From an uncultured virus (IMG/VR IMGVR_UViG_3300041405_000400) (Duplodnaviria; Heunggongvirae; Uroviricota; Caudoviricetes), in the IMG/VR virus record IMGVR_UViG_3300041405_000400: a stretch of 64,000 nt of DNA. The stretch is one strand, 5' to 3'. The translations under genes were made by a program, and so were the position numbers. The notes under the pieces are model-generated. The model was not told the DNA's origin. It did no database searches and saw only the letters and a program-made list of their open reading frames with translations. Shown here piece after piece: positions 2,743 through 46,636 of this stretch. Each line of letters starts with the position of its first letter. Position 1 is the stretch's first letter.

Positions 2743-3267
2743 TTATATAAGGCGAAGTTGACGCAGCCGCATGCTGGCGGCGGCATTGGACACCACAAAT
2801 GTCTCACTGAGGTCTTGCACTTGCTTGATTACCGGGAAAAAAATTCTCATCCAGAATTCTGGCATCAGCAGCGCCAGTGCAAAATCACAGGCTGCTGCGT
2901 CTTCTTCACTGCCTTTATCGGAAAAAACGCTGGCAGTAATTTCTGAGCCCGGCTTATTCACATGGCCCAGCAAAACGTGCCCCAGGGAAAAAGCCATTGC
3001 GAAATTTTGGCGGTAAATAATTTCATCTGGATGGTATTCACAAACGAACTCACCACACTCCTGATCGAAGTAAGCCCGAGCGCTGAGAGTTTTGGCGTTT
3101 TCTGCATTCAAGGGCTGGTACTTGATGCTGATCTTTTTGGTGCTGCCATCGCCCTCAGCCCGCTTAATGACCAACTGACTGGCAATCCAGAAAGGGCTAA
3201 AGGGCGGATCGATGCGTCCGATAAGAGCGTGGGCCTCTTTCGCCATATTGACAGCTTTTCTGTTCAT
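2743..3267 (-). CDS. ImmA/IrrE (DUF955)-family protein with a degenerate HExxH
   Basis: RQNFAMAFSLGHVLLGH and EEDAAACDFALALLMP match the family motifs RxRFTxAHELGH and ExxAxxFAxxLLMP. Confidence 0.8.
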   Translation of the reverse strand: MNRKAVNMAKEAHALIGRIDPPFSPFWIASQLVIKRAEGDGSTKKISIKYQPLNAENAKTLSARAYFDQECGEFVCEYHPDEIIYRQNFAMAFSLGHVLLGHVNKPGSEITASVFSDKGSEEDAAACDFALALLMPEFWMRIFFPVIKQVQDLSETFVVSNAAASMRLRQLRLI

Positions 3268-3357
3268 CGTTTCGAGTCTCAAATTATGTACTGATCATAC
3301 ACAGATAAGGCACTAAAGTCAATTACAGTGACAATTTTAGCGACTGATGGAGGAACA

Positions 3358-3385
3358 AAAATCCCGGCGATTGCCGGGATCTTTT
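3358..3385. terminator. intrinsic terminator hairpin
   Basis: AAAATCCCGGC GATT GCCGGGATCTTTT. Confidence 0.7.
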
Positions 3386-3397
3386 AAGTCGTCAGCG

Positions 3398-6475: not shown

Positions 6476-7753
6476 TCAGTCGTCAAACTCGATTTCTTCA
6501 GTTTTTCTCAGATTCAGGCGCGCCTGGATATTCACAATGATAAGTTGATCGGGGTCTTTCCTCATTCTGGCCAATTTGAGGGCTTCGAAGCTTGCGAAAT
6601 CCGCACCGCTTGGATCATTATCGATATAGAGAGTCATGTCCGAAAGAATCAGAAAACGCGGATCGAGGCTGGTGATCTTCTTTTCTCGCAATTTTTCGAG
6701 CTTGGACAGGTGGAGTTCATTCAGTTCGAAGCCCGGCCCCATGAGTTCAGCGAATCGGTCGCGGATGTCGTAAATCGCATGGTCAATACAGGTATGCAGG
6801 TTTTCTGATGGCAAGACGCCCTTAATCAGGTAGCCATCGTCCAATACATTCAGTTTTTTTCGCAGATAGCCAACCGGCATGCCGAATTTGCCGTAACCGG
6901 TCAAACCGTCTTGGGGGGCCATGACCCCGATAATTTCACGTAGCTCGGCTTCGTTGAGTTTGACGTTCGTTTGCAGGGCTTTAATGTTCTTCTTGATTGC
7001 CGCATCCACGTCAACCAACTCTTGACCGGAGCGGACACGGAACTCGGCCAAAACGGTCATCTGGCAGCAGCGAAGTTTCGAATTCCTGTAGTCATTTGGC
7101 ACGCATACCACATCACGAGGGTGAACCTTTACAAGCACCAGACGGCTGCGGGAATCGCCACCAAAAAAACCATTCGCCAGATACCCCACCGTGCAGACGT
7201 GGAGGCCTTCTGAGCAAGTTTGCTCTGGATCGCTGCAAACATCTTCCCGTGGCATTGATGCAATTGCTCCAGGCTCGTAGAGGACGGTCTGGCTGTAGTG
7301 ATCATAGAAGTCTTTACGCACAGTTTTGTACGCCAGCATGTAACCGTCATCAGTGATTGGCAGCGCGTTGTTTTCAATGAAGCCGTACAGCTCATTGACG
7401 GCCCGCTGATCCGGGTTTTGTTTCAGGTTTTCCATGAATCTCAGAAATTTGGACGGATCTTCATTACGGGCGATCATTTCTGTAATTTTATCGCGCAGTA
7501 CGCTGTGCAATTCCTCACCGTCAAAAATCAGTGCGCCATCATCAACGCTCATGCGACCATTTTGTTGGGCGCAGAAAGCGCGGATAGGGTCAATAAGCGC
7601 CTGCACTTGAGCTACATCATCTTTTTTCAGAGCGAGGACGATTTCTGGGAATTTTGGATGATCTTTTCGCACCATGCATGGGCGTGCTTCGCCTGGAAGC
7701 ATCATGGAGACAACATCAGCGCGGATTACAAAAGAAATATTGGTGTTCGTCAT
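6476..7753 (-). CDS. rIIB: rIIB-like protein
   Basis: FMENLKQNP...ELYGF...LPITDDGYMLAYKTV, MPREDV...TCSEGLHVC, VKVHPRDVVCVPNDY; lies directly downstream of rIIA. Confidence 0.88.
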   Translation of the reverse strand: MTNTNISFVIRADVVSMMLPGEARPCMVRKDHPKFPEIVLALKKDDVAQVQALIDPIRAFCAQQNGRMSVDDGALIFDGEELHSVLRDKITEMIARNEDPSKFLRFMENLKQNPDQRAVNELYGFIENNALPITDDGYMLAYKTVRKDFYDHYSQTVLYEPGAIASMPREDVCSDPEQTCSEGLHVCTVGYLANGFFGGDSRSRLVLVKVHPRDVVCVPNDYRNSKLRCCQMTVLAEFRVRSGQELVDVDAAIKKNIKALQTNVKLNEAELREIIGVMAPQDGLTGYGKFGMPVGYLRKKLNVLDDGYLIKGVLPSENLHTCIDHAIYDIRDRFAELMGPGFELNELHLSKLEKLREKKITSLDPRFLILSDMTLYIDNDPSGADFASFEALKLARMRKDPDQLIIVNIQARLNLRKTEEIEFDD

Positions 7754-7784
7754 TTGATCTGCCTGTGAAATAGGTGGGTTGCCT

Positions 7785-10097
7785 TCAGGCAGCCTTTGAA
7801 GTTGTGAAATTAATGTCGTTTTTTTGAGCCTTAACCATCATTACCATCGCGATATAATTTCGAACCATGGCCTTGCGCTCATCTGTGCCCGTGTTGACCT
7901 TGTTAATCTCAGGATGCATCTGACTCAGCATTGGATAGTCATTCAGCATGGCTTTCAAGGGGTTCATGCGCGCCTTCAGGCGGTTGATCCGGTTGGTTGC
8001 TTGGATCGTCGCTTTTTTATTTTGTGTCCAAAACGACGAGCCTTCACTGATGTGCGATCTCGCATCATTGCATTTGTTTCTGATGGCTCCAAGCCGTTCA
8101 GCCGCTTTGAACTTCCACGCTTGGGCGCCGAACAGGTCAGCACTCATCGCTTTGAGCTTGATGTGGTGCTCAATTCTCAAATCGCCCAATTTGTAATTGT
8201 GACCAATCATTTGCTTGGCCATGGTGCGCACCATGGTTTTGTTCAATGGATGGCTTGGGTCATCACCAATGCTCTTGAGGACTGTATTGATGTCTACCAA
8301 ACAGATGAAGTCTGACAAAACATCGAGGGTTTTCTTTTCGAGTGCGATGAGCCCCGAAAAGCCTTCAGTGTTTCGGATCTTGGGCAAAAAACCAAGGGTT
8401 GTGGCGACTTCCATCACAATAGCGCACGGTGATTCCCATTTGCTGTTGCTTCTCTTGAGGAAATAATAAACAGGTTCTGCATTCTCAGTGGCACTTTTGA
8501 GCACGTCATACAAATCTGCGGGCTTTATTTCTGTGACATTGCTGATCGAATAGCGTGAGCTGTACACCTTTTTCACCCGTTCCAACAATGGCACTGCCTG
8601 GGCCTTGTCAATCATGCGCTTGTGTTCGGCGCGTGCTTGATCTGCCAGAACTTGAATCAGCTCTTCAGTCAGTAGCGGAGGGTTTCCTAGCTGACGAATA
8701 ATGTCTTTTGCAGAATCCATTGTAATGGGTTTTCCGCGATCTCCTTCGATGACGAGCAAAATGCAGTCTTTTGCGTACATATAAGTATTAAGTAGATCGC
8801 GGTTAAGCTTGCGATTAGTTTTAACCAATACATGCAAACGGGACCTGGGCGTAATTTGTGAAAAAACGGCTTTACGGGAACCGGGTTTGACTGGCTCTTC
8901 AAATCTTACAGTCATTAGGCGCATTTCTTTCTTTTCAACGTAAAGCTGTTTGATTTCCAAATTACCGAGTTTAAGGTCTTTGAAGTCAAAATGTGTTTGC
9001 TGGATCGTATCCAAGCCAAGCATCATCAACAAATCGCCAGCCATCTGGTCGTTGATATGCTGCATCAATTGCCAGTCGGTCATGTCAGTGCTGACACGTT
9101 CGAGCTTTTTCTTCACGAATTTGACGATTTCGCGCATGCGTCGTTCGATAGCACGGCACGTCAATTCAGTGTATTGCAGCTTCTCGCGGCCTGTATCGAG
9201 GTTCACCGGGGTTTTGCTGATATCCAATTCGATGACCAAGCCTTGTAGGCGCTTGATGTTCAGATCGCCCAGCGTATAGCTGTTTTGAGCTGCCATGGTC
9301 TCAAAATCGAGTGGATAGCTGACGCCACCAATCACAACGCTATTATGGTTGATATGGTTGTAGGCATCCGAAAAGGTTTCTTTACTGCTGTTGTTCGAAA
9401 CTTGCAGGTATTTCCAGCCTTTTCCGGAATGCTTCACCAGTTTATTCAGACGTCCTCGCAAAGCCAAGACTTTATCGGAGATGTCTTTGCCGATGAACAC
9501 AGGAATGGAGGCGGTGTGCTGGTACAGCTTAATGGCCTCGGTCTCAAAGGTTTCAATGTCGGCAATTTCAACCGGGACGTTCACAATGACGCCATTGGCG
9601 TGATCAGTCGGTCCTTCCGCCAGCTGGGTCATGTGGGGGTAATTCGCCTCATCTTTGTAGCATTGGTAGAGGCAGCGCTGGCCATCCTTGAAGGCTTCTA
9701 CGGTAAACATACTTGAATAGGAAAATGGCGACTTGCTGCCTACTCCAAAAAAGCCGTTGTTCTCTTTGCGTTCTGCCGACAGAGACATGAAAAAATTGCC
9801 AATGAGGTTTTCGACCTCTGTCCAGAACAGGCCAATCCCTGAGTCTTCTATGATCAGATAGGGTTCTGCGTGCGTGGGCAAATGCACATGAATCGGCTCA
9901 AGGGGTTTGCCAGCATCAATGTGTGAATCCAATGCGTTGGTCGATAGCTCGCGAAGCACGGCTTCCTGGCGACGATGGTGCGAGTAGATGTTGGAAGACA
10001 ACACATGAGCAGCCATGGCGACGTTCGAGAAACCGTAAGCTACCCCCTCTCCCATGTTGCTGCGCTGCACTTCAACGGCTTTTGGATTGATCTGCAT
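7785..10097 (-). CDS. rIIA: rIIA-like protein (N-terminal GHKL/Hsp90-type ATPase)
   Basis: LSSNIYS...AVLRELSTNALDSH, IEDSGIGL, GFFGVGSKSPFSYS, GREKLQY. Confidence 0.88.
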   Translation of the reverse strand: MQINPKAVEVQRSNMGEGVAYGFSNVAMAAHVLSSNIYSHHRRQEAVLRELSTNALDSHIDAGKPLEPIHVHLPTHAEPYLIIEDSGIGLFWTEVENLIGNFFMSLSAERKENNGFFGVGSKSPFSYSSMFTVEAFKDGQRCLYQCYKDEANYPHMTQLAEGPTDHANGVIVNVPVEIADIETFETEAIKLYQHTASIPVFIGKDISDKVLALRGRLNKLVKHSGKGWKYLQVSNNSSKETFSDAYNHINHNSVVIGGVSYPLDFETMAAQNSYTLGDLNIKRLQGLVIELDISKTPVNLDTGREKLQYTELTCRAIERRMREIVKFVKKKLERVSTDMTDWQLMQHINDQMAGDLLMMLGLDTIQQTHFDFKDLKLGNLEIKQLYVEKKEMRLMTVRFEEPVKPGSRKAVFSQITPRSRLHVLVKTNRKLNRDLLNTYMYAKDCILLVIEGDRGKPITMDSAKDIIRQLGNPPLLTEELIQVLADQARAEHKRMIDKAQAVPLLERVKKVYSSRYSISNVTEIKPADLYDVLKSATENAEPVYYFLKRSNSKWESPCAIVMEVATTLGFLPKIRNTEGFSGLIALEKKTLDVLSDFICLVDINTVLKSIGDDPSHPLNKTMVRTMAKQMIGHNYKLGDLRIEHHIKLKAMSADLFGAQAWKFKAAERLGAIRNKCNDARSHISEGSSFWTQNKKATIQATNRINRLKARMNPLKAMLNDYPMLSQMHPEINKVNTGTDERKAMVRNYIAMVMMVKAQKNDINFTTSKAA

Positions 10098-10252
10098 GGC
10101 TATCCCGACGAGTAATTTTATAAACGTCATATTATATGCCGCCGTACGTTTTTGTCAATGCAACTTACGCAAGTCTTTTCTGTAAATGGTATTGACATTT
10201 GTGTCGCGATTAGCTATTATTAGCCAATATTCTTCCAGCCCATGGATGCCTC

Positions 10253-11026
10253 ATGAAATTCTTGAAACCTGAACACATGCTCTTGCTTAATCAGTCGTGT
10301 GCTGACATTGATGGCATGATTCGCCTGACTGAGCGCATTCATGATCCGGAACAGCGGGAAAACATCGTGCGCAAGCTGGCCGACGCCAAGGATACCTTGG
10401 CGGCACAATACGGGGAGTTTGAGCAGGAGGATGGCTCGCTTCTGGTAAAGCACCCGGCCTTCTGCCTGATCTACATTGATGAGGATCTGCTCGATGAGCC
10501 GGTGAAATTGTTTTTCGCCAAGACCAAGGCGCTCAGCTCGATCAAAATCTCCGTTTACCGGGCGGATGCCCGCGTCCTGCCCAACGGTAACGTTACTTAC
10601 GAGCGACGTGAGCAGTTGGCTGGTGTGGAACTCACTCAGGAAGTGTTTTCAAAGTGGATTACGATCTCTGGCAGTGACCGTTTCCCGGCGACTATCCGAA
10701 ATTTTGCAGGTCAGAACCTGAGTTATCCAGGTGATGCCTCTGAGCAGTCGTCACGAATGCTGATGGACGCCGCCTACAAGGTGCCCGATGGCTTCGAAAA
10801 GTGGGGGCAGGACATTCTGAACATCGTCAGTGCCCGAGCGGCGAAAGGTGGTGCGATGAGCAAGTCGGCGCGTGATGAAATCCGTAATACAAGCAGTACG
10901 CTTGAGAGTTGGATGGCATCCAACCCGAATTTTTATGCCCGAGAACTGGCCAAGCACGTCACACAGGTGGCAAACAATATTGAAATGGAAGTCGTTGCCG
11001 CCAGCAAGCTTAAGGGAGAGAAATAA
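10253..11026 (+). CDS. hypothetical phage-type protein (paralogue of the next gene)
   Basis: 257 aa; own TTGACA..TATTAT promoter. Confidence 0.8.
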   Translation: MKFLKPEHMLLLNQSCADIDGMIRLTERIHDPEQRENIVRKLADAKDTLAAQYGEFEQEDGSLLVKHPAFCLIYIDEDLLDEPVKLFFAKTKALSSIKISVYRADARVLPNGNVTYERREQLAGVELTQEVFSKWITISGSDRFPATIRNFAGQNLSYPGDASEQSSRMLMDAAYKVPDGFEKWGQDILNIVSARAAKGGAMSKSARDEIRNTSSTLESWMASNPNFYARELAKHVTQVANNIEMEVVAASKLKGEK

Positions 11027-13406: not shown

Positions 13407-14258
13407 ATGAGCAGCATTCAGATTGCCAAAGACATGACGTATTTTAAAGTTGAGGTCGTTGGCCATCGTCTGGCTATGCAGCCCACTACAATCAAGCGCC
13501 TTTTGGCTAAGACGGATTCGTATTTCGACGATAAGGACCAGACGCTGTATTGCGTATTTCAGGAAGTCGATTCAAATGGGGTTGCAATCAACAAGTCCTT
13601 TCTTGAAGACATGCGCTTCTGGCGTATGAACGATATCGTGCGGGTATCCTCGGTCCATTTGTTTGATTCCCCTGAGCTGGCGGCGGCGTTTGCTGCTGCG
13701 CTGGATCTGGAGACATCTCAAAAGGTCGCTCGTATTCGAGACGATGCGATTGCCAACAATCTCATCTTGATCGAAGAGATGATTCCAGGCTTTGTTTTCC
13801 ATTGTGTACGTGTGATTCCCAGCATGTATCGCACGTATATCGAGTCCAATGAGGTCGTTTCATCTCCAACGCTCCATGAGGATGTTGGGTCATACTTTGT
13901 ATTGATTCGCGATCTTAAGACTGGTCATGAGGCCAGCCGTAGCCTGTGTGATATGTCTATTGGTGAGCTTAATTCTTACAACAAGCACCGAAGCTTCAGG
14001 CAGCTGATTGAAGCAGATGCTTATGTAGAAGAAGTAGCTAAAATTGACGCTTTGCCGGTGCCTGATCTTGCTCATTTGTGGTCATCGGTCCATGACCGTT
14101 TTTTTGAGCACACACGTTTCACAGCAATAGATCTTGATAAGCATGAATCACTCTCCTGCTTCATGCCACGAAGCGAGCGCCTTCCAAAGCGGCCACATGG
14201 AAAACGCGACTTTAAACAGAATCCCTCTCGCAATACGGGGCCAAAAGGTCGCTGGTAA
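13407..14258 (+). CDS. hypothetical protein
   Basis: 283 aa; TTGACA-17-TATAAT promoter; flanked by similar terminators. Confidence 0.8.
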   Translation: MSSIQIAKDMTYFKVEVVGHRLAMQPTTIKRLLAKTDSYFDDKDQTLYCVFQEVDSNGVAINKSFLEDMRFWRMNDIVRVSSVHLFDSPELAAAFAAALDLETSQKVARIRDDAIANNLILIEEMIPGFVFHCVRVIPSMYRTYIESNEVVSSPTLHEDVGSYFVLIRDLKTGHEASRSLCDMSIGELNSYNKHRSFRQLIEADAYVEEVAKIDALPVPDLAHLWSSVHDRFFEHTRFTAIDLDKHESLSCFMPRSERLPKRPHGKRDFKQNPSRNTGPKGRW

Positions 14259-14315
14259 ACGCCGGTCAATGCTTGTTGCTAAATCCCGGACAGTGTTCCG
14301 GGATTTTTGTGTTGA

Positions 14316-14948
14316 CTAGGGGGCTGGGCTTTGGGTTTTGTTGTTGGCCTGGGCCTGATAGACCTGCACGTTGTTTCTGATGTCGATATTGGTTTTCAGT
14401 GCCGCAATCAGACTTGGCGATCCACCATCTACATTGTGTCGCAAAGCGGAGTCCTTGGCTTGCTGCTTGGCGCTCTCAAGGTTGTCGGAAAAATGCCATG
14501 GGCTTTTCACGTCATTCTCGTAGTCACGCCATCTCCATGCCCACGTAGTAACCTCTCCGAGCACAGCGGGTTTTTCTCCGTTTTTGCCGGTTGGAAGATT
14601 GGTGTCATAGACCTCTCGGGTATCATCAAATATTCCGTGTTTAAGTTGGAAGCTGGGTTTTTTGTCATTTTCGAACTGATAACAGACAAAAATGTCCTTC
14701 TGTATCACTAGTTCCCAGTTTGTCTTGGGCTTTCCGTCTTCGTGAAGAATGGCATCAGCGTAATGCTTAAGGAAGGCGACACCACCCCTGTGGTTCCGCA
14801 TGCTCGTGTACATATCGGCTTGTGGCTTGGTGAACAGACCTGCTTCTCCAGGATCATCAGTCAGGCTGTCTTCGTCTTGCTTAAGATAGCCTTTATCCTG
14901 ATTGTTCCACAGTAAAAACGCGTTTTTAATCGGTAGCGTGATGCTCAT
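14316..14948 (-). CDS. hypothetical protein
   Basis: AGGAG RBS. Confidence 0.75.
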   Translation of the reverse strand: MSITLPIKNAFLLWNNQDKGYLKQDEDSLTDDPGEAGLFTKPQADMYTSMRNHRGGVAFLKHYADAILHEDGKPKTNWELVIQKDIFVCYQFENDKKPSFQLKHGIFDDTREVYDTNLPTGKNGEKPAVLGEVTTWAWRWRDYENDVKSPWHFSDNLESAKQQAKDSALRHNVDGGSPSLIAALKTNIDIRNNVQVYQAQANNKTQSPAP

Positions 14949-20297: not shown

Positions 20298-20987
20298 ATG
20301 AGCATCAAGCCAGACAAGTGGATCAAACGACAGTGCATGACCCCCACCCATATTCGCCTGGATAGCGCCGGTAAGGCGTATTTCCACAATAGCGGCCTTG
20401 GTCCTTTGCCGGTCGCTGAAACACTTTGGCACGAGGTTACCCCTGCTGAACTTGAGCAATTCTGGCGTCCTATGATCGAGCCTTTCAACTCGGGTCAATG
20501 TCGCGGCAAGCCCGGTGAGCCATCAATCAGTTACGGCGTCAGCAGCTATGGCTACGACGTCCGATGCGCCAATAAATTCAAGGTGTTCACTAATATCAAT
20601 TCGGCCACGGTCGATCCGAAAAATTTCAACCCAGAAAGCTTCGTGGACGTGGAGAGCGATGTCTGCATCATTCCTCCAAACTCGTTTGCGCTGGCCAGCA
20701 CCGTTGAATATTTTCGGATTCCACGTAATGTCCTGACGATCTGCTTGGGCAAAAGCACTTACGCTCGCTGTGGTATCATTGTAAACGTAACGCCACTTGA
20801 GCCGGAGTGGGAGGGTCATGTGACACTGGAGTTCTCCAACACCACGACTCTGCCCGCTAAAATTTATGCCAACGAAGGCGTTGCGCAGATGTTGTTCTTT
20901 GAGTCCGATGAGGAGTGCGAGGTTTCCTACAAGGATCGAAACGGAAAATATCAAGGTCAGCGCGGCGTGACGCTGCCAAAGGCTTAA
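20298..20987 (+). CDS. dcd: dCTP deaminase
   Basis: [48 protein letters not shown]. Confidence 0.97.
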
Positions 20988-31743: not shown

Positions 31744-31819
<76 letters not shown>

Positions 31820-37535: not shown

Positions 37536-39100
37536 TGAGTCTCCCTGTGGTATATCTAGGGATTCTGAAGGTGAATCATCCGGGGTTTCAGGTGAGTGCC
37601 TGCTGTGACCGAATGCAATCCTTCTTTGACGTACCATCCGCTCTGCCGGTAGATACCGGGGCTGTGACTTACGCCACAACGCTTGCAGATTGATCTTTCC
37701 ATAGTCCGGTACGTCGCAGCACAGACTCCTGATCTGCCAGCATCTGAGCGATACTGGAGGGGCTATGGGTGTTTCCATCAGTGCAACACGCCAACAGTGC
37801 CGAATAAACGTCCCTTTGAATCAGCCCGTTGCCATCACCCAGCGCGTGCCAACGCAAGGACAGGGGTTTCTTCGTGTAGGAATCGGTGCAGTGATCGTAC
37901 TGCGACATTTTGAGCTTCCAGGTATTCAGTTCAATCATCTTGCCGCCAGCACTTTCAGCCTTGCGTTTCAGATGTTGAACAAAATAGCCCGGTGCCCTGT
38001 TTTTCACTGACTTTCCAAAAGACTTCTGAAAAGCCCGGTAGGACAATTTTTCGAGGTGCCAAATGTTGGCTTGACTGAGCAAGCGATTTACTAGTTGGCC
38101 GTGCTCATTCCGGCGTCGAGCCTGCAAAGTGCGTTCGATGTTTGCGATCCGCTGCCGCAGTGTGATCAATCGGCTTGATTGATTCGTGATACGTTGACCG
38201 CTGATCCAGAGGCCTTTCTTATCAAAGCACTGTGGATTGGTGGAACGCACGGAGCGGTCTGCCTTGCGCTGCAACCGCCGCAGAGTTTTGGCGCAAGGCA
38301 CAACGCCAGGACAAAAAGTTTGCAGTGTGGCACCTGACTCGGTGAAGCTGGCCACTGTCGAAGGTCCGATATCCAGTCCGCCGTGGGCGTTGACCGATAG
38401 ACTGGTGGGAGGGGCTTGACCTTCGAGGATCAGCTGGACGAAATAGCGAGTTTTACCCTTAATATTGCGCCATAGAACCCGCGAGAATTTCACTCGGTTT
38501 TTCAATGCATCATCGAGGAACGGGTCTTTACCCGGTGTAGGCAGAATCACAGGCATCAACAAGCCAGCCCATAGCAAGCAGGCGGTTTCGGACTGATAGC
38601 GAATGGCTGAAGCAGCACTTTTACCTTCTAGCGAATGCAGGGGTCGTTTTAGGCCTTTGAAGCGAGGTAGGCTGCGCTTCTTGTAGGAGTGCTGTTCAAG
38701 AGCAAAGAACACACGCTTCGCCAGTGTCTGCGGCTCATGAGCACCGAGGTGGTCGCGCCAAAGTCGGTTCTTAAGGCGTGTGCCAAAGGCAGAAAGGGCG
38801 TACTCAGAAAAACCGTAAGTTTCACGCAGCTGTTTATAGCCAGATCTTTTTGTCTGCACATCTTTTCTGTCGCGAAGGGTTGCCCATAGTGGATCACTAC
38901 GCATGGCAGAAAGTCTTCGGATACCCTCTGCAAGCAGGGCGTTGTAGAGCCTCTTGCCTGCCTCAAATCGCTTACGCATCACTGCCGAGTCGCGACCTTT
39001 TGTCACGAGCGGTAGCGTTATAATGAAACTGGAAGTTGAGGCTTTTTTCATCCGGTTTTACACTTTCAGCTCGACGAAGAAGAGTACAAACAAAGGCTGT
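37536..39100 (-). mobile_element. IS200/IS605-family tnpB-only (IS1341-like) element; boundaries approximate
   Basis: tnpB followed by a structured tail ending TCCCT...AGGGAGACTCA; no tnpA. Confidence 0.65.
37669..39051 (-). CDS. tnpB: RNA-guided endonuclease TnpB
   Basis: RuvC motifs GLDIGP, HLEKL and QRDVYSA; LYNALL N-terminal helix. Confidence 0.88.
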   Translation of the reverse strand: MKKASTSSFIITLPLVTKGRDSAVMRKRFEAGKRLYNALLAEGIRRLSAMRSDPLWATLRDRKDVQTKRSGYKQLRETYGFSEYALSAFGTRLKNRLWRDHLGAHEPQTLAKRVFFALEQHSYKKRSLPRFKGLKRPLHSLEGKSAASAIRYQSETACLLWAGLLMPVILPTPGKDPFLDDALKNRVKFSRVLWRNIKGKTRYFVQLILEGQAPPTSLSVNAHGGLDIGPSTVASFTESGATLQTFCPGVVPCAKTLRRLQRKADRSVRSTNPQCFDKKGLWISGQRITNQSSRLITLRQRIANIERTLQARRRNEHGQLVNRLLSQANIWHLEKLSYRAFQKSFGKSVKNRAPGYFVQHLKRKAESAGGKMIELNTWKLKMSQYDHCTDSYTKKPLSLRWHALGDGNGLIQRDVYSALLACCTDGNTHSPSSIAQMLADQESVLRRTGLWKDQSASVVA

Positions 39101-39220
39101 TACTATCTAAATTTGGCTTGATCTTAAATATAGGAAAGGAGTTGTAATAGTCAATAGTGTTTTATGTCAATTATTTTTTATGAATGAATCAGGATGCTTG
39201 TGAGGCACCTCTGTTTGCCC

Positions 39221-39297
39221 TGGAGCCGGTGACAGGAATCGAACCTGCATAACGATGATTTGCAATCATCAGCCTAGCCTTTCAGCAACACACCGGC
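39221..39297 (-). tRNA. tRNA-Cys(GCA), with 2 extra nt before the D-stem
   Basis: GATGA-TTGCAAA-TCATC, U73, CCA. Confidence 0.88.
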
Positions 39298-39539
39298 ATG
39301 CTCTTTTCAACTGATTAGGCAATCATTTAAGCCGTGCTTTTATGATTCCCACTTCAGTCTATATTCTTGAACTTATGGTTAATATTCAGAAGGGTGAGCG
39401 TCAAATCTCACCCTCCTCGCCCGTTCTCAGGCGAACAACTGGATATGTTCAGTTGCCAATCCCTTATTACAGCACAGGGTCTGCCTCCCAATATTATGGC
39501 AAACGGGAGCACCTATTCACGGAAACCATCCGCAAAAAC

Positions 39540-39616
39540 TGGCTGGCGATGCTGGGCTCGAACCAGCGACCTAATGATTAACAGTCATTTGCTACTACCA
39601 ACTGAGCTAATCGCCA
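39540..39616 (-). tRNA. tRNA-Asn(GUU)
   Basis: AATGA-CTGTTAA-TCATT, G73, CCA. Confidence 0.95.
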
Positions 39617-40131
39617 ACATAAACTCTAAAGATGTATTCGTGTAACACCGAAATTGTGGGTCTCCAATCGGCCAAGAAAAACAGTGTTACGCGAATACAG
39701 CCTTTCACCTCTGCATTCGGTCTTCTCTCAGACTGTCACGGCACTGCCTTCCGTCCTAGGGCTCCACCCACACTTCTCGCGCTTAGCCACTTCGCTTTTT
39801 AGGCTACTGAGCTGTCGGATAAAGTGCCCTCGGAGTTGACTGCAAACATAGAGTCATGTCTCTATTGGCTAACTGCAACCCATTTCTACAAGAGAACTAG
39901 GCCAGCGGAATTGAACCGCTCAGGGCTCATAGCAGGCTTTTTTCGGCTTCATGTGCGCACAATCGGCTTACTACCCCTGCTACTTTACCATTTGCATTTG
40001 AAAGTGTTCTTGTCAGAAGTCTTTCAAATGCAAACACGCATAAAATAGAACTCTATCTGCAATATAATCCAAATACGAGCCTGGATTATAATGTGTCAGA
40101 GCTTGCACCCTGACCGGAGTCAAAATGTCGG

Positions 40132-40521
40132 TCAGTCTTCTCGGACAAACCTGAAGCCTTTAACCGCTGCGAAATCTGGCACATGGTCGCCATTATAAAT
40201 CAGCTTCCACTTCTTGTTAGCCAGCTCTTCCAAATGAAACATGCGCTTATCAGTTTTAACCGCTACGGGCTTGATCATTTCGAATTCGCCCAGACCTCTT
40301 ATTGAAAATTTGCCGTTTGACAAGTCAATCGACTCAACATCAACAATGTCTTTTACATCCGATTCGTCGTTCGAGAAAAAGCATGTGTTAAAGGTCAATC
40401 GCCATGTCCCATCTGGAAGTTCATCCAAGTGAAACAAGTTTTTACGGATTTTAACTGCTGTTACACCACTCAATTCGAGTGTAATGTCAGTTCCAGCCAG
40501 CTCAATTGCCCTTCGAAACAT
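40132..40521 (-). CDS. hypothetical protein with an internal repeat
   Basis: FHLDEL...WRLTFN / FHLEEL...WKLIYN. Confidence 0.75.
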   Translation of the reverse strand: MFRRAIELAGTDITLELSGVTAVKIRKNLFHLDELPDGTWRLTFNTCFFSNDESDVKDIVDVESIDLSNGKFSIRGLGEFEMIKPVAVKTDKRMFHLEELANKKWKLIYNGDHVPDFAAVKGFRFVRED

Positions 40522-40569
40522 GCTTATCCCTTTAAAACTAGAGTGGTCATATAGACCACTCTTTTTATT

Positions 40570-40657
40570 TGGCGGAGGCGAAGAGATTCGAACTCTTGGA
40601 CCTGTTACAGTCGGCAGTTTTCAAGACTGCTGCCTTAAACCACTCGGCCACACCTCC
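40570..40657 (-). tRNA. tRNA-Ser(UGA)
   Basis: GCAGT-CTTGAAA-ACTGC, long variable arm, G73, CCA. Confidence 0.97.
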
Positions 40658-40846
40658 AAACTTTTTAGAGCTATTGACTCATCATCAAGAGTTTCTGTTT
40701 CCAGTCACTCTGGATCATAAGTCAACTACGCCTATTATTAAACCGGGCGAAGCGGTTACCTCTTGCTACCACTGGTAGCCGAGCAACAAGAGTTTGGAAT
40801 TTGCTAGCTGTTTTAGTTTCTAGCTGGTTCCGAATCCTATGTCGCT

Positions 40847-40875
40847 ATAATAATCATCTAAGCATCATGTGTCAA
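40847..40875 (-). promoter_or_regulatory. sigma70 promoter of the Ser/Asn/Cys tRNA operon
   Basis: TTGACA-17-TATTAT. Confidence 0.75.
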
Positions 40876-40892
40876 TAAGAATCTCAACTATT

Positions 40893-41774
40893 TTAATCCT
40901 TTAGAAACATTCCGCAGCTCGCTTTTACATCAAAGCCGACTTTTGGCACGATTCTCCAACTTTCTGCCTTGATCAGCGAGCGCAGGATCTCGGTATTGCG
41001 CTGAATGACCTCTTCGCACGGCTCCTTTCCATATTTTGCTGAATACGGGTTATAGCGAACGATGTTCAGGTTCACCTTCAGGTCGCGCTCGTTGATCGCA
41101 TTGGCAATGGCGACCATATCAGCTTCAGAGTCATTCTCGCCTTCGATGAATGCGAAATGAATCTTTGGCACTTTATGACTGAAATCTTGCCATGCCTTGA
41201 GCATATCGAGGCCATGTTCAGCCGTGTGCGCTCGGGCCAGCCAACGCTTACGGAACGATGGGTTCATGCTGTAGATCGAGTAATAGATCTCTGGATGCAC
41301 CTCTGGAAAAATGTCTTCCAGTCGCAAGTCACCCATCGAGGTTGGAAAAATAGACGACACCAGGAATTTGGATTCCAGGCCATAGGTTTGCGACTTCGCT
41401 GCCAGTCCATTGAGCAATTGCGCGCTGTCACTCAGCAGCAAAGGGTTGTTCAGTGGCTCCCCCCTGGCCATGAAGTTCCAGTGGATGAGCTTGGCCGGAG
41501 CTTGGGTGTCGTAATGCTCCAAGATGCGTTCGGCCTGCTGCATGAAGTCGTCCATTTCAGCATTGTCGAATTGATTCTGGCCGGTCGATGTCAGGTGGCA
41601 AAATCGGCACGCTTGATCGCAGCCAGATTGCGAGGACAGGTAGCCAATGATGTACTCAGGCACCCGACGAACGTAACGGTTTTCATAGCGACCGACATTC
41701 GGCGCAGGGTACTCAAAGTTGACCGACTGATCCTGCTGACTGAAGTGGGCTTTGAAAATGATGTTCTGGCTCAT
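40893..41774 (-). CDS. RlmN/Cfr-like radical SAM protein
   Basis: SSQSGCDQACRFC, MARGEP, GENDS, DVKASCG. Confidence 0.88.
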   Translation of the reverse strand: MSQNIIFKAHFSQQDQSVNFEYPAPNVGRYENRYVRRVPEYIIGYLSSQSGCDQACRFCHLTSTGQNQFDNAEMDDFMQQAERILEHYDTQAPAKLIHWNFMARGEPLNNPLLLSDSAQLLNGLAAKSQTYGLESKFLVSSIFPTSMGDLRLEDIFPEVHPEIYYSIYSMNPSFRKRWLARAHTAEHGLDMLKAWQDFSHKVPKIHFAFIEGENDSEADMVAIANAINERDLKVNLNIVRYNPYSAKYGKEPCEEVIQRNTEILRSLIKAESWRIVPKVGFDVKASCGMFLKD

Positions 41775-41863
41775 GCGTGCCTCGGTATATTTTGTTTGTG
41801 TGATTATAGCTTGGCTTTGAAGATTTTCAATTTTTCATTGAGTCGAGTGCCAGCGGATGAGAT

Positions 41864-42139
41864 TTAATTCAGGGCTTCTGCTGCACTCTCAATTGCATCA
41901 TTTCTCATGCGTTCAATCGAGGTAATTAGTTTTGCCTTCGTCTCTGTAAAAGGCAAATCATGATCTAGGAAATATTGAACGGCCAAACAATGTGCGAAGA
42001 TCGGTATTTGAGCATCAGTAATATCTTTTAGCCCATTTTCATCCACGGCTAATTCTTCCGGGTTCCAGAAAAAAGGCTCCCTGCCCTGCATTGCTGGCAT
42101 AAGCGGTTCCAATTTTGGAGTGAATGGAATTTTCTGCAT
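41864..42139 (-). CDS. hypothetical protein
   Basis: ORF in a minus-strand run. Confidence 0.6.
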   Translation of the reverse strand: MQKIPFTPKLEPLMPAMQGREPFFWNPEELAVDENGLKDITDAQIPIFAHCLAVQYFLDHDLPFTETKAKLITSIERMRNDAIESAAEALN

Positions 42140-42183
42140 ATTATGGGTGCTCGTTGAGTGGGTTGATTGAGATTCTTCGTCGA

Positions 42184-43149
42184 TCAGATTGAGGGCGATG
42201 AACGTTTTTGATTCAGTGATTGAGTTTGTTCGTAGCGCTTCGCAGCCTGTGGATTTACACCTAGGCTGGTCATGTCCAGGGCGTTGTGGTCAACGGCACG
42301 GTCGTGATCGATCAATTTACGCAACGCTTGAGGCACATCCACTTCTGCGGTTGGGCGATATTTCTGCTCAATGTTCTGCATGGCGGTGGCCAGGGTATCG
42401 ATCTGCGCCTGTAGATCCTTGCAGGACTTTTCAATTTCGTTGTACGGAGTAACGAATCTGTTTCGCTGATCAATGCACATACGCTCGGCATCGTCGAGTT
42501 TCTGCATATTGAAAATAGACATAAAATCGATGATCGGCTCAATGGTAAAATCCAGAACGGTGTCAATCACTGACAAGCCCAGCACATTCTTATCGCTGGT
42601 GCGCTGTTCTTTGAGGGCGTCTTGAAAGGCATTGGCGTGAGCGAACGCTCTGGAAACGTCATCTTGAGCGCTGCTGGTATCTAGGGCTGAAATAACGGAG
42701 AAGACCTTGTTGTTGGAGATCGCGTCTGTAAATTCGCTCCAATAGGCACTGTTACAAGATGCGGCAGCTTTGTCCAGATGGGCCACGGCGGTATCGCCCA
42801 GGCCTTTCAGCTCATAAAGCGGTGCAACAGCAGCCTCAAGGTTCTGGCGTTTTGCAAGCAAATCACCCCATGTCTTGCTGTCGGCTGGTTGAGCTTCGAT
42901 AAGCTCCACGACGCGCTGATCAAGCCAAAGCTGAGTCGATTCACGGGATGACTGCTCAATCGTGCTAAATCGCTCCTGAGCGGCCTTCAGTCCTTTCTCC
43001 GCAGGAGTGTCCATCACCGCATCAACGATTTGCCCCCAGAGGCCAGTCCGAGACTGTTTATCTGATACAACGCCCTGCTCTGCTTGAGCAAGGTCTGAAG
43101 CAGCCGCACTAAAAGTCTTGCTGATGGCGTGAATTGATGGGCTGCTCAT
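42184..43149 (-). CDS. helical/coiled-coil hypothetical protein
   Basis: AAGGA RBS, 321 aa. Confidence 0.8.
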   Translation of the reverse strand: MSSPSIHAISKTFSAAASDLAQAEQGVVSDKQSRTGLWGQIVDAVMDTPAEKGLKAAQERFSTIEQSSRESTQLWLDQRVVELIEAQPADSKTWGDLLAKRQNLEAAVAPLYELKGLGDTAVAHLDKAAASCNSAYWSEFTDAISNNKVFSVISALDTSSAQDDVSRAFAHANAFQDALKEQRTSDKNVLGLSVIDTVLDFTIEPIIDFMSIFNMQKLDDAERMCIDQRNRFVTPYNEIEKSCKDLQAQIDTLATAMQNIEQKYRPTAEVDVPQALRKLIDHDRAVDHNALDMTSLGVNPQAAKRYEQTQSLNQKRSSPSI

Positions 43150-43182
43150 TAATAATCCTTTAAATAAAAAAATTATATCACA

Positions 43183-43207
43183 GAAAAAAGGCCGCTTTCG
43201 CGACCTT
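43183..43207 (-). terminator. intrinsic terminator
   Basis: AGGTCGC-GAAA-GCGGCCTTTTTT. Confidence 0.8.
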
Positions 43208-43619
43208 GGGTATTACGAGCAACCGGGGATTTTCTTAGATCACTCTAAGAACCGCAATCAAGGCAGGCTCTATGCGGTTTTCTTCCGCATACTATTGAGT
43301 GTGCCATGACGCTGCCCCGCTTACCGCCACAACTGAACTTTCGCATGGGCTTGGTACTTGTTCAATCGTCACTTATCACTAACATTTCCGACAAATAACA
43401 AGTGATCACAGTTATCTGACCGTGGCCCACACCAGATTATGGTTACCTCTTTAATTTTCCTGGGATGCTGGCCCAGGCCGTCTTATCTAAACAATGCAGG
43501 GAAAAAACGGAACCCAGCCATTGTACACCGTCTTTTATGCTTCACGCTCAGATCGTATTGACGGTAGTCAGTCAACGATCCATCCCATAGCGTGAAGGTT
43601 TGCGGAATACACCGCAAAT

Positions 43620-43850
43620 TCAGATCATGACCCAGCGATACCCATCTGCAATCATGGCGTCAATTGTTGCCAGATGTTCTTCGTATTGAGCACCACCTTT
43701 GCCCTCAAAGGAATTCTCAAGAAGCCAATCACGGTAAAACTGTGTGGGGTTTCCAGAGTTGAGTGCGGCTTTCGTTACAGTGGTAGGTGTCTGAAAAACA
43801 ACATCAAAATTAACAATCTTGCCCTTTTGCAAAGCGAGATTCATGCTCAT
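43620..43850 (-). CDS. small hypothetical protein
   Basis: GAGG RBS before ATG 43850. Confidence 0.7.
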   Translation of the reverse strand: MSMNLALQKGKIVNFDVVFQTPTTVTKAALNSGNPTQFYRDWLLENSFEGKGGAQYEEHLATIDAMIADGYRWVMI

Positions 43851-44292
43851 GTTGCTACTACCTCTATAGCGTAAAATTTCGAGCGTGGCGCAGTAGACGC
43901 CTTGCTGGTCGAGTATTAGCTCAGCCAGCGCTGGATTGCAATCCCCAGAGTTCTTAACCACCATCGGCTTTATCTTTACCTTCTAAAAGCCGAAAAAACG
44001 CCAGCTTTACTTAGAAGCTGATGAAAGCGTCGATGTTCCTCATCTCAAAGGCCCCGATTTTCACAGTTCGGGGTTCTGATTTGCTGTCTACTCAGCAAAA
44101 TTCCGGATGCAGTGTTGCTGCAAACATTGACCAAAGCAGAGCCTCCCTAAAGTATCGCTATACATAAAACCGAAACTTAATGTACTTACGATGACTTTTC
44201 GGGAGGACTGCAAACTTGCCTTGCGGCGAACTCTTACTGGGTGCGAAAGTAGTACTTTCTGACCACAATAACTGGTCTTACACCTTTTAAAA

Positions 44293-44369
44293 TGGTCCGA
44301 GAGGAGGGACTTGAACCCCCGACCACCCGTTTATGAGACAGACGCTCTAACCAACTGAGCTACCCTCGG
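44293..44369 (-). tRNA. tRNA-Met/Ile2(CAU)
   Basis: TCTGT-CTCATAA-ACGGG, A73, CCA; Met versus Ile2 identity unresolved. Confidence 0.92.
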
Positions 44370-44376
44370 ACAACAC

Positions 44377-44450
44377 TGGAGCGGATAGCGGGAATCGAAC
44401 CCGCGTCATTAGCTTGGAAGGCTAAGGTTCTACCATTTAACTATATCCGC
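44377..44450 (-). tRNA. tRNA-Gly(UCC)
   Basis: TTAGC-CTTCCAA-GCTAA, U73, CCA. Confidence 0.97.
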
Positions 44451-44500
44451 TTAAACCCTGCGAAACTTAGCGTCTGCTTCATCTCGACTTGATGCTGGCT

Positions 44501-44529
44501 ATGATATCGAAGTAACTATCACCTGTCAA
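44501..44529 (-). promoter_or_regulatory. sigma70 promoter of the Gly/Met tRNA operon
   Basis: TTGACA-17-TATCAT. Confidence 0.75.
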
Positions 44530-44658
44530 CATTTATTTTCTATTAAATTCAACAACTTGCGTGAATCTTGAAAATAATGGCCAGACCGTCATCATGCAAC
44601 ATCCATGAGAGGGGATCTGGCTCTGTTGTACTTATCGTAACTATAATTTCGAGTTAAG

Positions 44659-45429
44659 TCAACGCTTTGCAGCTATTTCTTTGACGGTGTAGCCAAATCC
44701 CTCGACCCACTCTCGATAGATTGCTGTTTCGTACTGCCGGGTGGCCGTAAGAAAATTGCGGTTCTGTGACCCCAGGTTTTCCAGAAGCGCTGCCAAGGCA
44801 ACGGCAGGCGCATCCATCTTTTGGCAAGGGATCGTGTCCATGACCGCATGGCTACTGAGGCTGACCATCGCCGCCTGATCAGCTTCGATGCTGCCAAGGA
44901 ATTCGATGGTTGAGCTTTTCCCAAATGTCCGCTCGGCTTGCTCATTTGTTCGAATGCACCTGACGACATCCACCATTAGGTATGGATTGGACTCCAGTAT
45001 GTCCAGTGCATCAGTCCAGATGGTGAACATGTACACGGATGTGCCGCCCTGAGGCTCATGTGGCGCAGGATGCTTGCTCTTGGTGATGCTGAGGCCTTCG
45101 TCATGGAAATGCTTGCGCATCGGACTGATATACCCTTCGAATCCCCTGCCCTGTGGCGGATTTTTGCCAAACATTGGTGAGAAAAACATCAGCATCTGGT
45201 TGTTCACGTACAGGGTCGTTTTCCCGCTGGTATGGTAGTGCTGCGAGAAGACAATGTTTTTCTCAGCCATATCGACGCGGCGTTCAGATGACCAGGGTTC
45301 GTTGGCATCAAACAGCTTTGGCAGGGTGTCGCTACGGTTCATGTAGTTGTACATGGTGTGCGAGAAATCGAGCTTATCGATCTCATCAAGGCCCTCATTC
45401 CTCACAGCCATTAGCACCAAGTTGCCCAT
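44659..45429 (-). CDS. hypothetical protein
   Basis: GAGG RBS, own promoter. Confidence 0.8.
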   Translation of the reverse strand: MGNLVLMAVRNEGLDEIDKLDFSHTMYNYMNRSDTLPKLFDANEPWSSERRVDMAEKNIVFSQHYHTSGKTTLYVNNQMLMFFSPMFGKNPPQGRGFEGYISPMRKHFHDEGLSITKSKHPAPHEPQGGTSVYMFTIWTDALDILESNPYLMVDVVRCIRTNEQAERTFGKSSTIEFLGSIEADQAAMVSLSSHAVMDTIPCQKMDAPAVALAALLENLGSQNRNFLTATRQYETAIYREWVEGFGYTVKEIAAKR

Positions 45430-45511
45430 CTGTTCTGCCTCTGATGTTTTTTGACATTGTACGTTTCACTACCCCAGTGTCAATAGTAATGACATGGCGT
45501 GAGTCGTGCAA

Positions 45512-45937
45512 TTAACTCGAATGGGGGGCGCTTACAGATTCCCATTTCAGGGTTTCTGTAGTTGATGTATTTGAGCGCTGATAATCCTTGAGCATTTCGC
45601 TGTAACGACAATTACTAAAGTCGTACCGGCAGTGTGCGTTAATTATGTCAAGGAGAAGTGCCTTACTTTTATTACTCGAAAGTTCTTTAAAAGCATCGAG
45701 GTCTTCCTTTTTCTTTTCAAGAACAAAATTGCTATTGCATTCGATCCCGGAGTTTTGACCGCAATAAACGCGTTCTACGTTTTGATTGATAAAGGAGATA
45801 ACGGCATCTCGATTCTCGGCAGTGTCAGAAAAACCCGATGGACTGATGAGGTCAATGCCTTGCGCTTGGCAGGTTGTCGCGGCCATCATTGAAATGAATG
45901 CGAATGACAACGTGGTGATAATATTTTTCCCGTTCAA
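45512..45937 (-). CDS. secreted Cys-containing protein
   Basis: signal peptide, TTG start. Confidence 0.7.
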   Translation of the reverse strand: MNGKNIITTLSFAFISMMAATTCQAQGIDLISPSGFSDTAENRDAVISFINQNVERVYCGQNSGIECNSNFVLEKKKEDLDAFKELSSNKSKALLLDIINAHCRYDFSNCRYSEMLKDYQRSNTSTTETLKWESVSAPHSS

Positions 45938-45964
45938 AGTCTTTCTCCCAAAAGGCCGTGTTTG

Positions 45965-46636
45965 TTAGTCTTTAGATGGTTCATCACTGTCTGAAATAGG
46001 AGTGCCTGTCTGCTCAAGTCGCTCAGTCAACAATTCCGTCACTTCATCATTATCCTCTGGATCGAAGAGGTCGATGTCCATATAGACCGAAAAAAGAAGC
46101 TGATCGAGCGATATTTCCACAGTGTTTTGCGCAAAAACGGTCGCGATATTTTTCGGCTGCTTTTCACAAACCATATTGGGATTTGGCTGACGGTCGATAA
46201 TCTCGGCGTTCCGAATTTCGATAGGTAGATACAACAAGTCTTTGAGGTTCAGGAGGCCGAGGGAAACGTCTCCCTGTGGGGTAACGCCCCATAGATTGAC
46301 CTGCTCTTGAACCGAGTAAAGCTCCGTACGAGTGACATCCGTTGTCTTTTGCAGTACCAGATGGGTAATTTGATCATTGCCAGGGTTGGTAATTAGGCCA
46401 ATGCGTGGTTTCGCTGCGACCGACAGGCGCAAAAACTCATCACCCCAATTGGACAACTTGAGCAGATCCGGATAATTGATCAGGAGCAGTTTTATCGTGC
46501 GAAGAGTAAATGATGCGGCATTATCGAAGTCGATGTGTTCACTGATGACCGACAGTACATTGTCTTTGTTGACCAGAGTCGCATCGTCATCCAGGCGGCT
46601 CAGCAGACCGGATTTACAATCGAGTTTCAGCATCAT
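45965..46636 (-). CDS. hypothetical protein
   Basis: GAGGA RBS. Confidence 0.8.
   Translation of the reverse strand: MMLKLDCKSGLLSRLDDDATLVNKDNVLSVISEHIDFDNAASFTLRTIKLLLINYPDLLKLSNWGDEFLRLSVAAKPRIGLITNPGNDQITHLVLQKTTDVTRTELYSVQEQVNLWGVTPQGDVSLGLLNLKDLLYLPIEIRNAEIIDRQPNPNMVCEKQPKNIATVFAQNTVEISLDQLLFSVYMDIDLFDPEDNDEVTELLTERLEQTGTPISDSDEPSKD

Follow-up and report, generated by a model that had tools for sequence, protein, structure and literature searches.

The window examined here is a 64,000-nucleotide stretch of DNA from an uncultured virus of the Caudoviricetes (IMG/VR record IMGVR_UViG_3300041405_000400), and our subject within it is a single gene encoding a protein of the radical S-adenosylmethionine (SAM) superfamily that has the fold of the RNA methylases RlmN and Cfr (Table 1). 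A first look at the letters alone, which we call the original prediction, had proposed that this protein lacks the cysteine with which RlmN resolves its covalent RNA adduct and carries a tyrosine in its place. We confirm the replacement and find that it belongs to a large Tyr-variant family and not to one odd gene: by sequence comparison, the Cys-to-Tyr change is a family character, neither a local defect nor a chance substitution.

Table 1. Features of the window, with the residues of the radical SAM gene listed first and the remaining genes after them.
Feature	Coordinates	Strand	Basis or remark
Tyr-variant RlmN/Cfr-fold radical SAM gene (PHROG 27142), 293 aa	40893..41774	(-)	Open reading frame with ATG start
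GYLSSQSGC, residues 44-52	41619-41645	(-)	Translation of exact coordinates
Tyr45 codon, at the RlmN Cys118 / Cfr Cys105 position	41640..41642	(-)	Translation and alignment
CDQACRFC (CxxxCxxC, [4Fe-4S] binding; Cys52, 56, 59), residues 52-59	41598..41621	(-)	Translation
FMARGEP, residues 101-107, counterpart of RlmN MGMGEP, SAM-binding motif region	41454..41474	(-)	Translation and alignment
Cys287 codon in ASCGMF (ASCG = residues 285-288), counterpart of methyl-carrier RlmN Cys355	40914..40916	(-)	Translation and alignment
Promoter-like site TTGAAA-16-TATAAT (11/12), 29 nt 5' of the start codon	41803..41830	(-)	Consensus match only
tRNA-Ser(tga)	40570-40657	(-)	236 nt downstream of the gene's stop codon; ARAGORN and Rfam
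tRNA-Asn(gtt)	39540-39616	(-)	Downstream; ARAGORN and Rfam
tRNA-Cys(gca)	39221-39297	(-)	Downstream; ARAGORN and Rfam
tRNA-Met(cat)	44293-44369	(-)	2.5 kb upstream; ARAGORN and Rfam
tRNA-Gly(tcc)	44377-44450	(-)	2.5 kb upstream; ARAGORN and Rfam
tRNA-Thr	31744-31819		Sixth tRNA of the window
RIIB-like gene, 425 aa	6476-7753	(-)	Window annotation
RIIA-like gene, 781 aa	7785-10130	(-)	Adjacent to the RIIB-like gene
dCTP deaminase	20298-20987		Window annotation
TnpB/Cas12-like transposase-family protein, 460 aa	37669-39051	(-)	Just downstream of tRNA-Cys, within the tRNA region
Candidate structured non-coding RNA, ~300 nt	43180-43520	(-)	In the gap between ORFs 43620-43964 and 42184-43149

Translating the exact coordinates recovers every motif that had been read from the letters (GYLSSQSGC, MARGEP, and the retained Cys in ASCG), and inspection of the open reading frame (ORF) shows no room for an upstream extension. 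Membership in the radical SAM superfamily is indicated by the CDQACRFC cluster together with a fold that matches many radical SAM structures, and the Pfam Radical_SAM profile (PF04055) matches at 27.1 bits (E 5.5e-6), just under its gathering score of 29.5. A Pfam scan at E≤1 returns nothing besides Radical_SAM, so that the RlmN_N domain, which had been predicted to be missing, is absent from the sequence; it is also absent from the structure, where the model of residues 1-293 aligns to RlmN 76-361. The protein thus amounts to the RlmN core minus its first ~75 residues. Fused forms of at least 514 residues at E≤1e-20 were not found in the family, which is weak evidence, and the four representatives with 80-125 additional N-terminal residues show no extra Pfam domain there. 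An upstream 91-aa ORF (41864-42139), considered as a split-off N-terminal domain, has no family match and is not common to other loci, and we rejected it. The promoter-like site upstream of the gene is one of 10 found in the region, with 7.7 expected from shuffles, and RNA library X18, which covers parts of the window stretch only, contains no contig over the gene and permits no inference about its expression.

The tyrosine can be followed through the family. An exhaustive search of 1.84 billion representatives returned 857 representative clusters at E≤1e-3, of which 312 reach E≤1e-30, and conservation was counted in an alignment of the query with its best 150 representatives (n=151). Position 45 is Tyr in 146 of the 151 sequences, the others being four that are N-terminally truncated and one (P0220) with Cys. 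The cluster cysteines at positions 52, 56, and 59 are kept in 147, 147, and 148 sequences and Cys287 in 149, while the FMARGEP columns hold M102 in 149, A103 in 139, R104 in 145, G105 in 151, E106 in 140, and P107 in 116. These four cysteine columns, three of them cluster ligands, are the only conserved ones. No substitute conserved Cys for C118 appears in the 151 aligned representatives: 34 of them have Cys at position 44, where the window protein has Gly, and fewer than 10 share the window protein's Cys253. The possibility, raised alongside the original prediction, that another cysteine fills the site therefore finds no conserved candidate. Eight of eight RlmN-type proteins extracted from five host genomes carry Cys where RlmN has C118. 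A tree with canonical RlmN as its root recovers the Tyr family as one clade (i.e., monophyletic), with a protein of Klebsiella phage 05F01 and one of Tunturiibacter phage Tunturi_5 as successive sisters.

Structure and profile comparison place the tyrosine precisely. A family profile built from 108 members and aligned to PDB chains matches Cfr at E 3e-25 and RlmN at E 3.5e-19, with the SSQxGC, GEP, ND, NP, and xxCG motifs in register. In this alignment, Tyr45 falls on residue 118 of the RlmN chain (a Cys in the wild-type structure 3rf9, mutated to Ala in 4pl1 and 5hr6, which are C118A structures) and Cys287 falls on C355, and Cfr C105 and C338 align with Tyr45 and Cys287, respectively. Because no gap separates Tyr45 from the first cluster Cys, its equivalence to C118 is secure. 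The AlphaFold2 model of the window protein (pLDDT 97.1, pTM 0.93) aligns in VIA-align to tRNA-bound RlmN (5hr7_A) with a Z of 29.5 and a root-mean-square deviation of 2.3 Å over 273 residues; Cfr (9p0p) follows at Z 19.7 and unrelated radical SAM enzymes at Z≤16.6, and Foldseek gives E 3e-16 and TM 0.76-0.79. The comparison with RlmN by alignment and AlphaFold model that had been proposed as a check thus bears the prediction out, with Tyr at C118 and Cys at C355.

Measured against the class A radical SAM methylases, the window protein has the core of the class (an RlmN-type fold with its beta extension, at a Z well above that of unrelated radical SAM enzymes) and, in the alignment, a Cys at the methyl-carrier position (Cys287, at C355/C338), and it has Tyr45 instead of the second Cys. 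It misses every curated cut-off for RlmN and Cfr, scoring 47 bits vs. 290 (TIGR00048) and 27.6 vs. 633 (NF008396) with the NCBIfam RlmN models and 44.3 vs. 530 (NF000424), 42.6 vs. 550 (TIGR04432), and 39.8 vs. 468 (NF011024) with the Cfr models. PHROG 27142, on the other hand, matches residues 4-292 along profile positions 3-300 of 300 (E 3.6e-110). We therefore have no equivalog to assign: on these comparisons, the gene would belong to a family of its own, mostly viral and sister to RlmN and Cfr, that is part of neither equivalog and most likely works like them. The family-wide tyrosine, the missed cut-offs, and the lack of another conserved Cys strengthen the earlier view that the protein is set apart from ordinary RlmN and Cfr, probably by its chemistry or substrate. 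Public records name relatives "RlmN" or "Cfr family"; these names are over-calls and are not to be taken as marking resistance genes, and nothing here indicates a Cfr-like resistance function for the window protein.

The family is spread across large mobile elements and some bacterial genomes. The closest named relatives of the window copy lie on four ~1 Mb Pseudomonas megaplasmids (58-68% identity), and metagenome proteins reach 98% identity. Relatives occur in 24 records of isolated phages, including 201phi2-1 (gp434), Psa21, Phabio, CcrColossus (gp283), and Brevundimonas jumbo phages, and on IMG/VR contigs of up to 465 kb. In a genome collection, 74 of 82 pattern-matched stretches encode a relative, many of them labelled Planctomycetota or Myxococcota. 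The window stretch itself recurs at 90-99% likeness in contigs from several soil and rhizosphere runs. Megablast with positions 38000-46000 gave no plasmid match, and among phages its sole match was to tRNA-Ser. Alongside the Tyr-family gene, five of five host genomes tested encode a canonical RlmN that scores above the cut-off. We considered whether the family displaces RlmN in small genomes, since four of four family-carrying genomes of 0.7-1.1 Mb have no canonical RlmN, and discarded the idea: it carries no weight because 105 of 151 sampled genomes of the same phylum lack any match. The literature that we searched holds no description of the family or its Tyr variant, with most subscription journals outside that coverage, so a prior report is possible.

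The gene had also been said to lie between two groups of tRNAs, and this holds: Ser, Asn, and Cys tRNAs follow it, Met and Gly tRNAs precede it, and all six tRNAs of the window are co-oriented with it. Linkage to tRNA arrays is also seen elsewhere. By raw counts, at least one tRNA lies within ±10 kb of the family gene in 24 of 80 viral and 12 of 74 bacterial loci, and at least three do so in 17 of 80 and 1 of 74, respectively. When family proteins are grouped by single linkage at 60% identity into 40 lineages, a tRNA is found within 10 kb in 12 lineages, arrays of at least three in 6, and a tRNA within 1.5 kb in 7 (19 of 160 loci). The clearest cases are the Pseudomonas chimalliviruses, in which the gene directly follows a tRNA array (in the 305 kb genome of Psa21, the gene occupies 287.2-288.1 kb, and all seven tRNAs matched by Rfam fall within 289.3-296.2 kb), locus L108, where tRNAs flank the gene on both sides and one is 13 nucleotides (nt) away, loci L123 and L101, locus L132, and the window itself. 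The tRNAs share the strand of the gene without exception in all eight array loci examined. The linkage thus recurs, in chimalliviruses and at least four other phage lineages, and is a minority pattern, not a general one, with only 7 of 40 lineages showing it within 1.5 kb. Among other genes of tRNA metabolism, a CCA-adding enzyme lies 2-3 kb downstream of the family gene in Caulobacter and Brevundimonas phages, and TruB, a MiaB-like enzyme, and AlaRS are each a neighbor in a single bacterial locus.

Several side observations concern these tRNA regions. In three viral contigs (L134 at 8132; L141 and L151 at 7871 and 7951), ARAGORN calls "tRNA-Pyl", a label that we take to denote a CTA (amber-reading) anticodon, some 0.7-2 kb away from the family gene, and these genes may be suppressor tRNAs or reflect stop-codon recoding in those phages. 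In the window, the TnpB/Cas12-like protein encoded within the tRNA region matches phrog_506 (E 8e-31) and, weakly, Cas12f and Cas12u. Contig X3 of a DNA run joins position 39695 to 40005, skipping 309 bases between tRNA-Asn and ORF 40132-40521, from which we deduce a related strain without that piece.

Many bacterial copies have a different setting. An AbiEii-type nucleotidyltransferase gene adjoins the family gene in 35 of 74 bacterial loci (L024, at 6850-10864, and 34 others, L005-L061), on contigs labelled Planctomycetota, Myxococcota, and the like. It is divergent at a distance of 55-263 nt in 31 of these 35. Its operon goes on to encode a leucine-rich repeat (LRR) protein at 34 loci and, at 22, a sulfotransferase-like P-loop protein; a sulfatase lies near the cluster in some loci. 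No AbiEi-type gene stands between the radical SAM gene and the AbiEii operon in these loci. In L044, the gene order is rearranged and the genes of the cluster are still together, and AbiEii identities reach down to ~30%, implying that the linkage is old. Some members of the AbiEii superfamily (MenT) nucleotidylate tRNA.

A role in defence was considered and set aside, as the window protein has no PADLOC match and 96 flanking proteins from 18 AbiEii-clade loci yielded only a retron reverse transcriptase (L024), a PD-T4-6-like kinase (L028), an IetA-like ATPase (L030), and some generic matches, which do not amount to a clear defence island. The retron-type reverse transcriptase of L024 (10981-11856, minus strand; St85 family, E 1.5e-61) is directly downstream of the radical SAM gene. 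Three bacterial loci (L009 at 13526-13881, L045 at 14243-14610, and L063 at 2958-3388) have a transfer-messenger RNA (tmRNA) gene at a distance of 3-7 kb. Such genes are common integration sites of genomic islands, and their proximity would fit copies carried in islands integrated at ssrA.

Two further settings recur in phages. The gene lies among recombination genes (UvsX, UvsY, and SbcC/Mre11-like) in three phage lineages, and genes of nucleotide metabolism lie near it in others. The latter keep a nucleotide substrate in play and are taken up below. The specific idea of an alternative thymidylate synthase was rejected: ThyA is present in two of two complete chimallivirus genomes, two Caulobacter/Brevundimonas phages have ThyX-type matches at 25.8 bits (above the cut-off) and 18.9 bits (below it), and a fifth phage record, 74% complete, has neither a ThyA nor a ThyX family match.

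The rest of the window looks like that of a phage. Besides the RIIA-like and RIIB-like genes and the dCTP deaminase, it carries MazG-like, SSB, and Hsp20 genes among many ORFans, and from this set we regard it as part of a large element, either a phage of the virulent type or phage-like. Upstream of the radical SAM gene, a candidate structured non-coding RNA folds at -120.7 kcal/mol (z -3.85, with 0 of 100 shuffles as good) and ends in a terminator-like hairpin (43207-43188). A contig from an RNA library, of a kind that may also hold DNA, spans 43205-43507 at a depth of 107. Comparing the candidate with Rfam at E≤0.1 and with the DNA of the phage collection gave no match.

What might the enzyme do? 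According to the review PMC9692996, two conserved cysteines define the class A radical SAM methylases, RlmN C118 (Cfr C105) is essential for resolving the covalent adduct, and the current view is that C118 acts as a general base on the adenine carbon. Such a role could in principle be filled by tyrosine. From the fold, the motifs, their family-wide conservation, and the gene contexts, we infer an active methyl-Cys-dependent nucleobase C-methylase that uses Tyr as its resolving base and RNA, with tRNA foremost, as its substrate; we put this forward tentatively, as a little short of an even chance. The protein keeps the class A core: besides the RlmN-type beta extension, it has the cluster and SAM-binding motifs and the C-terminal loop Cys that is the methyl carrier of RlmN. 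One SAM would methylate Cys287, and a second would be cleaved to a 5'-deoxyadenosyl radical, whereupon the methyl-Cys would become a methylene radical and add to a nucleobase at an sp2 carbon. The adduct would then be deprotonated by Tyr45, acting as tyrosinate or through proton-coupled electron transfer in the role that Cys118 has in RlmN, and the methylated product would be released. The likeliest class of substrate would be RNA, and the leading candidate is tRNA of the phage or the host. Since the methyl-carrier loop and SAM motifs are nearly unchanged and one specific residue occupies the position of the base, the simplest reading is the same chemistry with Tyr resolving; and since the second catalytic Cys is always Tyr, the reaction is probably finished differently.

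Several observations weigh against a tRNA methylase. The N-terminal domain of RlmN contacts RNA, and the window protein does not have it. The protein is also acidic, with an isoelectric point of 5.9 (family median 7.1 vs. 8.1-8.9 in five canonical RlmN proteins). In 56 of the 80 viral loci and in 62 of the 74 bacterial ones, no tRNA lies within 10 kb of the gene, and none lies within 8-10 kb in any of the six closest relatives of the window (megaplasmid loci L001-L004 and L064 and viral contig L080). The proximity counts are plain tallies, uncorrected for chance placement across the genome, and accessory genes of large phages are known to insert in tRNA regions. Finally, true dCMP deaminases stand directly beside the gene in two lineages (L118 and L143), and neighbors at other loci include a dCTP-deaminase-like protein, purine nucleoside phosphorylase-type enzymes, and IMPDH. 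Taken together, the neutral-to-acidic charge, the missing RNA-binding domain, and these neighbors leave room for an enzyme with the same radical SAM core that acts on a free nucleotide or small molecule, either making a modified nucleotide for phage metabolism or serving in the AbiEii-LRR-sulfotransferase cluster. The conserved bacterial partners, a nucleotidyltransferase and a P-loop sulfotransferase-like protein, would suit it, as would an ESM Atlas structure row, a lead only, in which a 491-aa Bacillota cluster has a dCMP-deaminase domain fused to this fold. We nevertheless consider such a substrate unlikely, though by no means remote: the nearest structures and sequences are those of RNA methylases, tRNA arrays beside the gene recur, each nucleotide-metabolism neighbor is limited to one or two lineages, and its thymidylate-synthase version is not supported, given the ThyA and ThyX-type matches in carriers.

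The remaining alternatives turn on the tyrosine itself. In spore photoproduct lyase, a Cys/Tyr pair serves as a hydrogen-atom relay, and the exchange of one catalytic Cys for a redox-active Tyr throughout the family could mean that Cys287 and Tyr45 form such a relay, for radical repair, isomerisation, or reduction on nucleic acid, with no methylation at all. The lyase is among the structural matches, and the recombination genes around the copies of three phage lineages would agree with such a function; its Z of 13.2, however, is general radical SAM background, and the xASCGxF loop and SAM motifs match RlmN so closely that methyl-Cys chemistry fits best, which makes the relay a long shot. It is very improbable, in turn, that the enzyme is a single-turnover protein that stays cross-linked to its RNA target like RlmN C118A. 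C118 mutants of RlmN do trap a protein-RNA cross-link, as PMC9692996 states and the PDB titles 5hr6 and 5hr7 agree, but the replacement is Tyr in 146 of 147 untruncated sequences and not varied as in simple loss, and a replacement that is always Tyr points to a selected catalytic role. We give equally little credence to an ordinary RlmN or Cfr orthologue with another Cys in the C118 role and 2-methyladenosine or 8-methyladenosine as its product at the usual sites, A2503 of 23S rRNA or A37 of tRNA. The names in public records favor it, whereas the scores (47 vs. 290 bits for RlmN and 43-44 vs. 530-550 bits for Cfr), the want of a further conserved Cys at position 44 or 253, and the canonical RlmN already present in all five host genomes speak against it.

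We thus return to a methyl-Cys-dependent methylase with tyrosine as its base, and to why it would matter. Two catalytic cysteines define class A, and loss of the second in RlmN or Cfr kills turnover. Hundreds of clusters across jumbo phages, megaplasmids, and some bacterial chromosomes keep the methyl-carrier Cys and always have Tyr for the other; if these enzymes turn over, they would embody a second way to resolve a protein-substrate adduct, and the "general base" view of Cys118 could be tested on a variant supplied by nature. They are also among the few conserved giant-phage enzymes with recognisable chemistry and no known target, and that target, be it tRNA, rRNA, or a nucleotide, would reveal what the phage changes in host translation or the nucleotide pool. 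The tRNA idea is suggestive. A bolder version of it, which we judge decidedly unlikely in full, would make the Tyr family a third type of class A methylase by mechanism, with which large phages C-methylate their own or the host's tRNA so that it escapes host enzymes that attack tRNA. The bacterial AbiEii pairing would then be the cellular counterpart, a methylase and a toxin-like enzyme acting on the same RNA with one protecting against or licensing the other, and the phage copies would be captured counter-defence genes.

A comparison with known systems summarizes where the window protein stands. The group to which it belongs is PHROG 27142, annotated as "Fe-S-cluster redox domain-containing" and including 201phi2-1 gp434, CcrColossus gp283, and the Psa21 and Phabio homologues. 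The window protein is 41-51% identical to members in 21 phage records and differs from them in being nearer to the megaplasmid genes and metagenome proteins. The 05F01 and Tunturi_5 proteins (22-25% identity) are likewise short radical SAM forms in large phages and stand between the Tyr family and canonical RlmN: that of 05F01 has Val at the C118 position and Cys three residues later (LVLSCSHGC), whereas that of Tunturi_5 keeps the Cys (LCLPTQ). With Cfr (9p0p), the C8 methylase of 23S rRNA A2503, the window protein has its best profile E-value, the same aligned motifs, and C338 as the equivalent of Cys287, but it has Tyr45 where Cfr has C105, resembles Cfr less closely in structure (Z 19.7), and misses the cut-offs. 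With E. coli RlmN (3rfa and 5hr7), it shares the core fold, CxxxCxxC, SSQxGC, GEP, ND, NP, and the C-terminal loop Cys at 17-18% identity, and departs from it in having Tyr for C118, no RlmN_N, MARGEP for MGMGEP, and a less basic charge.

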